This document shows, piece by piece, positions 7,743-17,371 of a DNA stretch of 64,000 nucleotides. Source of the DNA: a virus (taxonomy: Duplodnaviria; Caudoviricetes). Within the stretch, counting starts at the first letter, position 1. Each line of letters opens with the position of its first letter. Location of the stretch: IMG/VR virus record IMGVR_UViG_2907202186_000003, positions 74,081-138,080 of that record. One strand, given 5' to 3'. The notes below the pieces were generated by a model, which had not been told where the DNA came from, ran no database searches, and worked only from the letters and a program-made list of their open reading frames with translations. The translations under genes were made by a program, and so were the position numbers.

Positions 7743-7976
7743 TTATTTAATTACAAATTCTATTTCCTTATATTCAAACTTATCACCATGTCTTGAATCA
7801 TAGAACTTTTCCCAAGCTAGCAGATCCTCTTCTTTTTCTGTTTCACTAAATACCATTGATTCAATTAAGTTGTCAGTATATTCACCGACTTTTCCAATCC
7901 ATACATTTCCTTCTACACTCTGGATGCTGCACCACTTAATAAATTTATCTCCAACTTTGATTACATATCTGCTCAC
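7743..7976 (-). CDS. hypothetical protein
   Basis: Bounded by motifs at 7734 and 7992; GGAGTGA RBS. Confidence 0.65.
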   Translation of the reverse strand: MSRYVIKVGDKFIKWCSIQSVEGNVWIGKVGEYTDNLIESMVFSETEKEEDLLAWEKFYDSRHGDKFEYKEIEFVIK

Positions 7977-8008
7977 TATGTATCACTCCCCATGAAAGGA
8001 TCATTTCA

Positions 8009-8377
8009 TCAATACTTCAATGCTTTTCCCTTGCCTATGGTCAATTTCCATGCAAGTAAACATCCTTCTTCAAGTTCTTGTTTGTCAGTAAAACACATAT
8101 CACACTGCCCGTTTCTAAAAATCTCGCACTGTCTCTCAACAATGTTATGAAGAGTTTTTCTTTTGATAATTCTAGCAGCAGTTCCCTTAATATATCGTTC
8201 CTCGGTGTAAACTGTTATGTATTCTGGATCATTTTGCAGCTCTAAAGTACTTCTTTGTGGTTTAACTGTTTTTTCAAACCGTGCGGCGAACATGTAAACA
8301 CGATTATTAAAGTCATCATTTACGTACACAGCCCTCATTGGAGCAGTTACATTTGTATCTTCCTCAATCTGATACAC
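8009..8377 (-). CDS. hypothetical protein (5' end possibly frameshifted)
   Basis: ORF present; the RBS-supported ATG at 8426 is out of frame by one base. Confidence 0.55.
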   Translation of the reverse strand: MYQIEEDTNVTAPMRAVYVNDDFNNRVYMFAARFEKTVKPQRSTLELQNDPEYITVYTEERYIKGTAARIIKRKTLHNIVERQCEIFRNGQCDMCFTDKQELEEGCLLAWKLTIGKGKALKY

Positions 8378-8777: not shown

Positions 8778-9023
8778 TCATTTTAAAGGAAACTTTGTGT
8801 ATAGTTCCTCTCTAAACTCGTCATTTTCGATTAGGTAAAATTCGTCAATGATACTTCCTTGATCGTCCCAGATTTTCATTTTCCAATCGTGCAGTATTTC
8901 AACAGAAGTTCCATAGTATTTAGTCAACGAATCAAATTTAAACTTTACTTCATTATATTGTGTACTTTCTTCGGTAACATCAATCCAATCAGACTCTAAA
9001 ACATGAATACCGAACAATATCAT
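8778..9023 (-). CDS. hypothetical protein
   Basis: Bounded by motifs at 8770 and 9039; GAGGAGTG RBS. Confidence 0.65.
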   Translation of the reverse strand: MILFGIHVLESDWIDVTEESTQYNEVKFKFDSLTKYYGTSVEILHDWKMKIWDDQGSIIDEFYLIENDEFREELYTKFPLK

Positions 9024-9321: not shown

Positions 9322-9957
9322 TCATCCTTTATATTCTGTATCGCTATTCAAAATAGGATCGAAATATTTTTCCTCGGCTCGTTTACGAGCTTTTATAGCA
9401 TCTTCCTTTTCGGAAAAATACCCTAGAGATATTTGTTTCCCCTTAAATCCAATGTGTGCCGTCCATTTTTGACGGGATTCATTCCATCGTACACCCTTGT
9501 GTCCACTTTTATTGCCTTTATGGAGCTTTGCCTTCAAAGCGGTTTTCCTCGTCCCATCCACACGGTCAGTTTTTTCATGCTCTCTTGCACCTATATCACG
9601 TTTTTCCTCTCTATTACACCCACAACTCTTATAATACCCAGCCCGCAGGCTGGCCCCGAGAACATATATAACTTCCCCACACTTGCAACGACATTCCCAA
9701 AGCCTTGTTCCGTTTGCCCCTCTTTTGTCGCTTAGTCGGATAACCTTCAAATCACCAAAATCCATGTCAGACAAGTCTTTCATTCTTGATGTGGTCCTAT
9801 GGCTGCCATATTCCAATTCAGCGTCTTTTCGCGCTTGTACGGCGTCCTCGACATCAGTGAAATAGCCTAAATATTTTCGTTTTTTATTTACAAATATATA
9901 AGCACGATACTTGCCTTTGCGGCTGTCATAACTAACGTCTTTGTGATCATCTATCAT
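9322..9957 (-). CDS. AP2-domain DNA-binding protein (homing-endonuclease-associated architecture)
   Basis: Two AP2-like repeats (KYRAYI...YLGYF.D.EDAV.AR; KWTAHI...SLGYF.EKEDAI.AR) flank a WECRCKCG...KSCGC module. Confidence 0.8.
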   Translation of the reverse strand: MIDDHKDVSYDSRKGKYRAYIFVNKKRKYLGYFTDVEDAVQARKDAELEYGSHRTTSRMKDLSDMDFGDLKVIRLSDKRGANGTRLWECRCKCGEVIYVLGASLRAGYYKSCGCNREEKRDIGAREHEKTDRVDGTRKTALKAKLHKGNKSGHKGVRWNESRQKWTAHIGFKGKQISLGYFSEKEDAIKARKRAEEKYFDPILNSDTEYKG

Positions 9958-10172
9958 TTTCCTACCTCAAATCGGCTTGCGAACCAAAGCGGAGTTAAAT
10001 TACCTGTCCGCCCCTTGATTACAGCATCTGGCCGTGAAAACCGCTTTTCCTTACCGCGGTAAGATGGATTCAACATCGCCTTAGCTGTCTTACTTACATT
10101 TTGCTGAGTGGTACCGATATGTTCAGCAACCCACTCAGCTCCAACGTATTCAAGGGGCGGTGTTACTTTACC
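9954..10172 (-). CDS. small HTH protein, Aca-like/AlpA-like (no canonical start visible; not in ORF track)
   Basis: Open frame ...LEYVGAEWVAEHIGTTQQNVSKTAK...FSRPDAVI...PLWF. Its TGA overlaps the ATG of the AP2 gene. Confidence 0.55.
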   Translation of the reverse strand, partial: GKVTPPLEYVGAEWVAEHIGTTQQNVSKTAKAMLNPSYRGKEKRFSRPDAVIKGRTGNLTPLWFASRFEVGK

Positions 10173-10441
10173 AGTGTCACGCCTATTGGATTATACCAGT
10201 CACACATTTCTGACTCATCAGTGATTTCTTCGTACTCATCATAAACATCCCACACCAGAATATATTCGTTATTTTCTGCATCAACAGCGGTTGCTTTGTA
10301 GTGGGGGCGTTCGCCGGAAACTCCATCAATATATGGGTCCTGTGTGGTCTTCAAGGTTTTCCCTTCAAAATCAATCACCGTCGAGTTAAACTCGTTCAGA
10401 TCGCTAAAAGTTTTCACTAAATTTTTCCTCCTTGACATCAT
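10163..10441 (-). CDS. small acidic hypothetical protein (candidate anti-CRISPR); true start probably internal
   Basis: D/E-rich C-terminus WDVYDEYEEITDESEMCDW; lies next to the solitary CRISPR repeat and the HTH gene. Confidence 0.55.
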   Translation of the reverse strand: MMSRRKNLVKTFSDLNEFNSTVIDFEGKTLKTTQDPYIDGVSGERPHYKATAVDAENNEYILVWDVYDEYEEITDESEMCDWYNPIGVTLVK

Positions 10442-10460
10442 ATTTAATATGATTTAATTT
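10432..10460 (+). promoter_or_regulatory. sigma-A-like promoter with palindromic operator for the solitary repeat
   Basis: TTGACA at 10432-10437; TG-A-TTTAAT or TAATTT as -10; perfect palindrome ATCATATT-T-AATATGAT at 10437-10453. Confidence 0.65.
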
Positions 10461-10472
10461 AAAAATGTAAGT

Positions 10473-10504
10473 GTCGCACCCCGTGCGAGTGCGTGGATTG
10501 AAAT
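10473..10504 (+). CRISPR. solitary type I-C-like CRISPR repeat (candidate Racr / crRNA-like RNA)
   Basis: GTCGCACCCCGTGCGAGTGCGTGGATTGAAAT (32 nt) fits the I-C repeat pattern GTCGCAC...GTGCGTGGATTGAAAT. No second repeat and no cas genes were seen. Confidence 0.88.
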
Positions 10505-10526
10505 ATTCTTATAGTATTTCAGCAGG

Positions 10527-10551
10527 AGGCCCTTTACGGGGCCTTTTGTGT
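10527..10551 (+). terminator. intrinsic terminator after the solitary repeat
   Basis: AGGCCC-TTTACG-GGGCCT followed by TTTGTGT. Confidence 0.7.
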
Positions 10552-10577
10552 TACCATCCCGATGATGCCCTCTTAAT

Positions 10578-10979
10578 TTAAAATAGTTGCGCAATCACGA
10601 GAGCGTCCTTTATTACAATCTCTCCGTGATCAGGATCGTCATGGCGTCCCAGGCGCTTACTGGCGATTATGTAACAATGATCGGTACCAAAAATTTGGTC
10701 GCGCGCCTTTTCAGCTGCGAAGGAAGAATATTCGTAAGTCTGGCTGATTGACATGTCCCAGGCGGATGTACCGTTAAGAAGTTCCATCTCCTCGTATTCC
10801 TCTGTCCCGTATTTAGGGAACTCCCTTTCATCTTCGCGATCAGCGTTATGGCGGCTGTATTCGCATTCCTCACCGATCGCGCGTTCCTTGTTTTCAAAAC
10901 GAAGTCCGATAAAATAGAATTCATTCTCATTGGCGACGTAGATTTCTTTAGCCTCCGCGTACATTTCTGCGACTGTCAT
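10578..10979 (-). CDS. acidic hypothetical protein, possible ADP-ribosyltransferase-like fold (candidate anti-defence)
   Basis: Start MTVAEM after GAAGGAGG; IGLR / GTSAW / DHGEIVI recall the R-S-E ART motifs. Confidence 0.55.
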   Translation of the reverse strand: MTVAEMYAEAKEIYVANENEFYFIGLRFENKERAIGEECEYSRHNADREDEREFPKYGTEEYEEMELLNGTSAWDMSISQTYEYSSFAAEKARDQIFGTDHCYIIASKRLGRHDDPDHGEIVIKDALVIAQLF

Positions 10980-11028
10980 CTTAATTCCTCCTTCATATAT
11001 TTTTCCGTGATTCCTTGTTGTTGGTTTT

Positions 11029-11061
11029 ATTATATCACACAAGGTTGTGCTACACAACCTT
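11029..11061 (-). promoter_or_regulatory. sigma-A promoter with palindromic operator
   Basis: Minus strand TTGTGT-17 bp-TATAAT with extended TG; perfect inverted repeat AAGGTTGTG-CTA-CACAACCTT at 11041-11061. Confidence 0.7.
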
Positions 11062-11192
11062 TTCTTGAAAATATTATAATTTCCATACACAAATAACTCC
11101 AAGCAACAAAACTAACTCGCTTGGAGTTTGATAAAATTAATCTTTCATTAAGAAAGACAACCCCGAAAATAAGATTGTCTTTGCAATATAAA

Positions 11193-17206: not shown

Positions 17207-17371
17207 AATATTCTCTCCTTTTATTAAAGATTTTACTTAGTGTTCAAATATACAATGTTACTAATTGTACCATTGTATATTTGTCTTGCCACCTAACCGC
17301 TCAATGTCAGCGGTTAACGCTCTAGGCTTAAGGCTCAATCCCGATATGTCGGGAACCGCCTAGACGGTTTA

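Follow-up and report, generated by a model that had tools for sequence, protein, structure and literature searches.

A solitary type I-C CRISPR repeat in a small-RNA-like cassette of an SPbeta-like prophage, a probable RNA anti-CRISPR

Genomic setting and organization of the cassette

A single 32-nucleotide (nt) repeat of the type I-C CRISPR family, GTCGCACCCCGTGCGAGTGCGTGGATTGAAAT, is carried on the plus strand of the window analysed here, which is the whole stretch of 64,000 nt from a virus of the class Caudoviricetes (IMG/VR record IMGVR_UViG_2907202186_000003, positions 74,081 to 138,080). The G+C content of the window is ~35%, compared with ~48% in the host contigs, its terminase shares 46% identity with the terminases of SPbeta-group Bacillus phages, and homologues of the 133-amino-acid (aa) protein encoded beside the repeat are named from Paenibacillus, Brevibacillus, and Bacillus, which together indicate that the window is part of a large SPbeta-like prophage of a Paenibacillus-like host. 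The repeat, termed psiR, is framed within a cassette of ~115 nt, in which a TTGACA hexamer, a palindrome, a weak -10 element, the repeat itself, a spacer-like stretch of 22 nt (psiS), and a terminator follow one another (Table 1). Judged from the order of its parts, the cassette appears to have the anatomy of a self-contained small-RNA gene.

A preliminary description of this DNA, which was prepared by a model from the letters and the open reading frames (ORFs), had reported a TTGACA promoter containing a perfect 8-1-8 palindrome upstream of the repeat. Both sequence elements are present. For Racr candidates, a promoter is looked for in the 250 bp upstream of the repeat (PMC10651486); here, the TTGACA-17-TAATTT pattern ends 12 nt upstream of the repeat, with a predicted transcription start ~5-6 nt before it, but a consensus scanner made no promoter call at this site. 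The pattern TTGACA-N16-18-TANNNT occurs at six sites in the window against 4.4 expected by chance and is thus no rarer than chance in A+T-rich DNA, so that only its position just 5' of the repeat is informative. Perfect palindromes with 8-bp arms are found five times in the 64 kb, and two of them overlie both promoters of this 700-bp stretch. As for the terminator, the G+C-rich hairpin was called on the plus strand only by the terminator finder of this analysis, while the opposite strand has no T-run, and the RNA fold of positions 10468-10556 reaches -32.9 kcal/mol (z = -3.95). The intrinsic terminator that had been proposed after the repeat is therefore supported by the fold and by this finder, while the consensus scanner missed it, presumably because that scanner allowed the A-rich 5' flank to pair with the T-run. 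No Rfam family was found between positions 9000 and 12000, even at E-values up to 1. The weight of these observations rests on the placement of three elements around the repeat and not on any single element. The stretch psiS, with its 22 nt, is shorter than the array spacers of the host genus, which are ~32-38 nt long as implied by a repeat-to-repeat spacing of 64-70 nt.

The cassette is located between the first two genes of a minus-strand operon and is oriented opposite to them; both neighbours are on the minus strand, as the antisense arrangement noted in the preliminary description implies. The stop codon of the 133-aa gene is 26 nt from the cassette terminator, and the ribosome-binding site (RBS) of the following 84-aa gene abuts the -35 hexamer of the cassette. 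The related contig L289 has its homologues of the 133-aa gene (77% identity) and the 84-aa gene (65%) only 17 nt apart, compared with 160 nt here, and four other relatives sharing one or other of the flanking genes have no cassette. The short spacing in L289 and the missing cassette in the relatives point to a clean insertion of ~115 nt, which left both genes and the downstream RBS intact. With its palindromic operator, two small acidic proteins, and helix-turn-helix (HTH)-like frame, the operon that received the cassette looks like an anti-defence operon.

Table 1. Positions of the cassette parts, of the operon around them, and of CreR-like units in type I-C loci of the host genus
Feature	Position	Strand	Details
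Promoter-like site	10432-10460	+	-35 TTGACA 10432-10437; 17-nt spacing; weak -10 TAATTT 10455-10460
Perfect 8-1-8 palindrome	10437-10453		ATCATATT-T-AATATGAT; between -35 and -10; candidate operator
Solitary type I-C repeat (psiR)	10473-10504	+	31/32 identity to array repeat of G018
Hairpin part of psiR	10473-10493	+	C8-A16 mismatch in stem
5' handle of psiR	10494-10504	+	TGGATTGAAAT; 11 nt; same as the majority handle in 1,533 array repeats
Spacer-like stretch (psiS)	10505-10526	+	ATTCTTATAGTATTTCAGCAGG; 22 nt
Intrinsic-terminator-like hairpin	10527-10552	+	G+C-rich; core AGGCCC / GGGCCT, then TTTTGTGTT
Operator of the operon promoter	11042-11060	-	-10 TATAAT; palindromic operator (GGTTGTG-TAG-CACAACC core) over -35
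First operon gene	10578-10979	-	133-aa acidic protein; conserved unnamed family
Next operon gene	10163-10417	-	84-aa acidic protein; GTG start at 10417; RBS AAGGAGG 10427-10433
HTH-like frame	9954-10172	-	Follows the 84-aa gene in the operon
Homing endonuclease	9322-9957	-	AP2-domain HNH; last operon gene
Host CreR-like units	L153:6776-6957; L144:7632-7868		Genomes G008 and G018, respectively
Further host CreR-like units	L137, L138, L139, L152, L155, L156, L157, L158, L162, L167

The solitary repeat and its single base change

The repeat occurs only once in the window at up to three mismatches, where the chance expectation is zero, and it is also the sole copy at up to eight mismatches in the 6.6-Mb, 99.99%-complete genome of the lysogen. 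The earlier statement of a single 32-nt repeat with no second copy is thereby borne out, and the element is confirmed to be a genuine and solitary type I-C repeat. For comparison, 1,533 array repeats were taken from 40 type I-C loci of the host genus. An array repeat of genome G018 differs from the solitary one at a single position, the handle and all other positions being intact. This difference falls on the stem pair 8:16, which is paired in 99.9% of the 1,533 array repeats and shows covariation (C-G in 1,335, T-A in 152, T-G in 44, C-A in one, and C-T in one), while the solitary repeat has C-A. The C-A mismatch in the canonical stem, as well as an alternative perfect hairpin TCGCAC-CCC-GTGCGA, had been pointed out in the preliminary description, and both are present.

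Type I-C systems and CreR-like units in the host lineage

Type I-C systems are common among the relatives of the lysogen. Of 115 species in the genus, 42 have the type I-C protein Csd1 (Cas8c), and 31 of 115 genomes contain the repeat with no more than three mismatches, mostly in arrays with tens of copies. Comparison with the CRISPR repeats of the lineage, which had been put forward as a check, thus yields near-identical type I-C arrays within the genus. Beyond the genus, BLAST matches at 92-97% identity over 32-40 nt show near-identical repeats in several further genera of the family, and some BLAST match to the repeat query was obtained in 14 of the 19 family genera sampled. A singleton repeat match in genome G003 (L002) belongs to a small degenerate array, which is unlike the cassette.

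The type I-C loci of the genus also carry units whose build is identical to that of the cassette, namely a promoter, one degenerate repeat with the handle at its end, a guide, and a terminator. The guides of these candidate CreR-like units are 17-32 nt long, mostly 20-22 nt, and the 22 nt of psiS fall within this range. In G008 and G018, the only loci in which the gene order was mapped, the unit occupies the opposite strand in the cas3-cas5 interval. A partial target flanked by TTC was found 30-150 nt away for 12 of the 18 host candidates, with one to four mismatches over 17 informative positions (every sixth base being ignored), and these targets are probably at the promoter of cas5-cas8c-cas7. 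Elements of this kind, resembling creA, have been reported from the intergenic regions of type I-C cas loci (bioRxiv 10.1101/2023.03.10.532045).

In G018, a cysteine-rich ORF of ~37 aa with a good RBS is situated between the CreR target site and cas5 (L144, ~7970-8085, plus strand). According to its sequence, it could encode a CreT-like toxin or a small zinc-ribbon protein.

Relationship to known RNA anti-CRISPRs and regulators

RNA anti-CRISPRs (Racrs), or solitary repeat units, were described by Camara-Wilpert et al. (Nature 2023, PMC10651486), and the cassette is similar to them as an intergenic lone CRISPR repeat on a prophage, with a repeat of known kind. The validated type I-C member, RacrIC1, is co-transcribed with acrIC5 as a bicistronic RNA (PMC10651486); the cassette shares with it the type I-C repeat and a place inside or beside a candidate anti-CRISPR operon, but is antisense to its neighbours and has its own promoter-like site, candidate operator, and terminator. 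RacrIF1 acts through the part of its RNA that precedes the cut; this part has no handle and hence does not recruit Cas5f or Cas8f, and the handle-only product is inactive (PMC10651486). By contrast, the leader of the cassette would be only ~5 nt long, given the predicted start, and nearly all of the predicted RNA would lie downstream of the cut and carry the handle. A Racr that acts like RacrIF1 would have an intact repeat stem-loop, whereas the stem of the cassette repeat is mismatched, and in the census of Camara-Wilpert et al. a lysogen that lacks CRISPR-Cas, as here, belongs to a minority of ~10% (PMC10651486). The proposal of a Racr directed against type I-C of the host, made in the preliminary description, consequently holds with respect to the definition of a solitary repeat unit, but neither for a type I-C system in the lysogen nor for a build like that of RacrIF1.

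Cracrs are viral copies of the host CreR/CreA regulators that use Cas proteins to repress the transcription of cas or toxin genes, and type I-C Cracrs have been predicted (Liu et al., bioRxiv 10.1101/2024.10.29.618823). For example, CracrVA1 combines a single repeat-like sequence with a short spacer-like sequence and a rho-independent terminator, and it causes Cas12a to repress its own promoter (bioRxiv 10.1101/2024.10.29.618823). The cassette is likewise a phage-borne single repeat with a short spacer-like stretch and a terminator outside any CRISPR-Cas locus, its predicted product keeps the 5' handle, its guide would be shorter than a normal spacer, and candidate anti-defence genes adjoin it. 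It differs from Cracrs in that the match by which these are defined, at least nine protospacer-adjacent motif (PAM)-proximal bases shared with a host CreR/CreA spacer or with its PAM-flanked target at a cas or creT promoter, was not cleanly found, in that its repeat is nearly perfect and of the array type instead of the degenerate CreR type, and in that it is a single unit and not an array.

Compared with the host CreR/CreA units (bioRxiv 10.1101/2023.03.10.532045; in the genus, L153, L144, L139, and L152), the cassette has the same order and sizes of parts, a promoter adjacent to the repeat, an 11-nt handle that is the same or one base off, a guide of ~20 nt, and a terminator. Unlike the cassette, the host units are located within cas loci (between cas3 and cas5 where mapped), have a TTC-flanked target near each of them, and possess repeats that are strongly degenerate in the 5' half, and the phage guide matches none of theirs in register. 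Since the predicted RNA of the cassette has almost no leader and keeps the handle, the CreR/Cracr arrangement fits it better than a Racr of the RacrIF1 type.

Possible function of the cassette

The cassette is probably an RNA anti-CRISPR against the type I-C systems of Paenibacillus-type hosts. As to its mode of action, we tentatively favour, with less than even confidence, a handle-bearing RNA of the CreR/Cracr kind, which would load into a shortened type I-C Cascade and probably repress a promoter of Cascade genes. Observed in its favour are the arrangement of the parts, the likeness of psiR to genuine array repeats, the frequency of type I-C in the genus, the insertion into the operon, and the like build of the host CreR-like units, while transcription, processing, loading into Cascade, and the target are predicted. 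Transcription is expected to start a few bases 5' of the repeat and to end at the terminator hairpin, and the Cas5c of a type I-C host would then cut after the repeat hairpin, releasing an RNA with an authentic 11-nt 5' handle, a guide-like stretch of 22 nt, and a 3' hairpin. The processed RNA might recruit Cas5c, Cas8c, and a few copies of Cas7 into a shortened Cascade, which could divert Cas proteins from phage-targeting CRISPR RNAs (crRNAs) and would probably repress a partially matching promoter, most plausibly that of cas5-cas8c-cas7.

A number of results weigh against this reading. None of Cas1, Cas5, Cas7, and Cas8c/Csd1 was found in the lysogen genome, and a k-mer scan of it found no CRISPR array; the earlier remark that there are neither cas genes nor a second repeat thus extends to the whole genome, and without a CRISPR-Cas system the cassette has nothing to act on in its present cell. 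None of 1,575 unique spacers from the type I-C arrays of the genus matches the window beyond 16 nt, and there is no sign of type I-C pressure on this phage. Searches of cultured phages, of viral, genome, and metagenome contigs, and of 400 family genomes returned no second cassette, and with a singleton nothing argues for selection. With regard to the RNA itself, the canonical hairpin is destabilized by C8-A16 (-5.9 instead of -12.8 kcal/mol), so that the alternative hairpin (-7.4 kcal/mol) becomes the minimum-free-energy fold of the repeat; the damaged stem could block processing by Cas5c, and the base change could equally be the first step of decay. Moreover, bases 11-17 of psiS are complementary to the end of the handle (TGAAATA / TATTTCA) and are predicted to pair with the handle and the seed, and the handle may, according to this model, be sequestered by psiS. 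The consensus scan, finally, called neither a promoter nor a terminator at the cassette, and the -10 element is weak.

A candidate CRISPR array on contig C13 of the lysogen (period 66) turned out to be a leucine-rich-repeat coding region.

The searches for targets of psiS bear on the same question. When a TTC PAM was required, the best match of psiS in the 40 type I-C loci of the genus had four mismatches, which equals the result of shuffled guides and adds to the points against a guide. When the PAM condition was dropped, a match to psiS emerged between cas3 and cas5 of G018, where an unbroken run of 10 PAM-proximal bases and, in total, 14 of 17 informative positions agree; the site overlaps that locus's own CreR target on the same strand. 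Also to be held against the favoured reading, the PAM of this site is TTA, not TTC, and the site is shifted by 4 nt from the register of the host CreR. Of all the 20-mers that the window contains, only 0.2-0.3% fit one of the 12 host CreR target sites as closely as psiS does, a test that was framed after the G018 match had been noticed and in which similarity is inflated because both sequences resemble a -10 box. In the wider family, a search with TTC plus the seed pattern gave 22 matches in 401 genomes, one of them in a cas locus. In the type I-C locus of a member of another genus (G452), a TTC-flanked 10-nt seed lies inside cas3 and extends to 14 of the first 15 bases, where the chance expectation for such matches in cas operons is ~0.01-0.02 by a rough hand estimate; no CreR-like unit was found at this cas3 site. 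Taken as sequence matches, these results suggest, but do not establish, that psiS is a guide.

Outside the cas loci, the searches returned little. Viral contigs contained 99 psiS seed matches, none of which extended and which showed no PAM enrichment, and species-representative genomes contained six matches, all in unrelated phyla, against ~4 expected by our own estimate. Among seven matches in metagenome contigs, six are not beside a repeat, and no extended protospacer match to psiS was found in cultured phages. The seventh metagenome match is an ordinary array whose spacer happens to begin alike, and a site on C13 of the lysogen's own genome (three mismatches, CAC PAM, within a host ORF of 475 aa) was taken as chance. 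The search for TTC-flanked partial matches that the preliminary description had proposed thus produced suggestive matches but no clean one. Of its two alternatives, a decoy or a regulatory guide, both remain the best readings of the cassette.

The decoy, that is, a Racr in the strict sense which has no DNA target and titrates Cas5c, Cas7, or Cas8c, is less probable but deserves serious consideration. As a lone repeat on a prophage, the cassette conforms to what has been defined as a solitary repeat unit, RacrIC1 is a validated precedent, and a non-targeting crRNA alone lowers interference (PMC10651486). The lack of a convincing PAM-flanked target for psiS and the anti-defence look of the operon are in line with a decoy as well, and its weakened hairpin might make the RNA a poorly cleaved pseudo-substrate that holds Cas5c. 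On the other hand, RacrIF1 inhibits via the RNA upstream of the cut (PMC10651486), for which the predicted leader of ~5 nt leaves hardly any room. Among the 67 non-redundant solitary type I-C repeats from viral contigs, only 2 are followed within 120 nt by such a terminator, and the build is therefore not generic to such repeats; the compact order of repeat, 22 nt, and terminator is instead that of the host CreR-like units. The resemblance of psiS to a Cascade-gene promoter site is also non-random by the 20-mer test, with the post hoc framing of that test already mentioned.

It is unlikely that the cassette is an inert passenger or a decaying remnant, in which an array repeat was captured by illegitimate recombination and has since been neutral in CRISPR-free hosts. 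Such an origin would agree with a singleton that shows no conservation, with a lysogen devoid of CRISPR-Cas, with the weak -10, and with the fact that the sole base difference destroys a pair kept in nearly all array repeats, as decay would. Nevertheless, 31 of 32 positions including the whole handle are intact, the insertion is clean and spared the neighbours and the downstream RBS, and random capture offers no explanation for a perfect -35 with its palindrome and a strand-specific terminator, all correctly oriented and spaced.

As a long shot, the base change itself may be functional and not a product of decay. In that case, with pair 8:16 broken and the alternative hairpin favoured, Cas5c would bind the repeat as a pseudo-substrate but process it poorly, so that either the nuclease would be trapped or Cascade would sit in an unusual register on the Cascade-gene promoter, offset from the CreR site and with a non-canonical PAM, and expression would be switched by the operator within the anti-defence operon.

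Virus-borne mini-arrays are known, and the intact repeat and handle would allow a functional crRNA 5' end to form, but a one-spacer mini-array, in which the 22-35 nt after the repeat arm the host Cascade against a rival phage or plasmid, is very improbable here, as the genome contains no second repeat, even a degenerate one, at up to eight mismatches, the single-stranded stretch is 22 nt and not ~32-38 nt, and no extended protospacer was found in cultured phages, viral contigs, species-representative genomes, or the lysogen's own genome. There is similarly little chance that the unit serves the minus-strand operon as a cis-antisense regulator or terminator module and resembles a repeat by accident: it runs antisense to the gap between the 133-aa and 84-aa genes, with its -35 against the RBS of the latter, but a 31/32 match to a type I-C repeat, of which none is expected by chance, would be left unexplained, and the relatives express both genes without such a module.

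The flanking operon and other features of the window

Neither flanking protein has a sequence match in Pfam, PHROG, or PDB. The family of the 133-aa protein comprises 90 relatives in Paenibacillus, Brevibacillus, and Bacillus, with R27, S42, R48, D50, R52, H101, and Y103 invariant. Its structural model has a predicted local distance difference test score (pLDDT) of 92.8 and gave no match with Foldseek against PDB; with a second aligner, the weak top rows (Z <=4.6) were mostly ADP-ribosyltransferase (ART) folds, such as Arr, PARPs, Rhs ART toxins, and Tpt1, and a minimal ART-like fold is a possible interpretation of the model.

The palindrome over the -35 of the operon promoter, within positions 11020-11065, is kept in place in the relatives L288, L289, L290, and L292 (~2900-2960), while its arms differ among the window and the relatives, for example GGTTGTG/CACAACC, GGTTGC/GCAACC, and GGTTTAC/GTAAACC. 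Differing palindromes are as expected for phage-specific autorepressor operators in an acr-aca-like operon.

The HTH-like frame is 82% identical to a 74-aa gene with a GTG start, which directly follows the 133-aa homologue in L290. In the window, no start codon (ATG, GTG, or TTG) is available to it ahead of residue 34, and it runs over the end of the 84-aa gene in the -1 frame, so either its start has been lost or it depends on frameshifting or coupling. The AP2/HNH homing endonuclease at the end of the operon could be a means by which genes near the cassette are exchanged.

Elsewhere in the window, a match to the Pistol self-cleaving ribozyme (Rfam RF02679) was found at 17287-17354 on the minus strand, with 38.8 bits against a gathering score of 34.5.

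Significance

Phage solitary type I-C repeats, RacrIC1, and type I-C Cracrs have already been described, and the cassette therefore leaves the current picture unchanged, as a good new example and not a new principle. If active, it would be a compact, self-contained, and apparently regulated RNA anti-CRISPR of ~115 nt against type I-C, carried by an SPbeta-like Paenibacillus prophage. A ready comparison set is available in the 12 CreR-like regulators of like build from hosts of the genus, and the stem carries a natural single-base variant that can be reverted. Together, the cassette, the host set, and the stem variant would be convenient material for deciding between decoy and guide and for asking how much of the repeat hairpin Cas5c needs.

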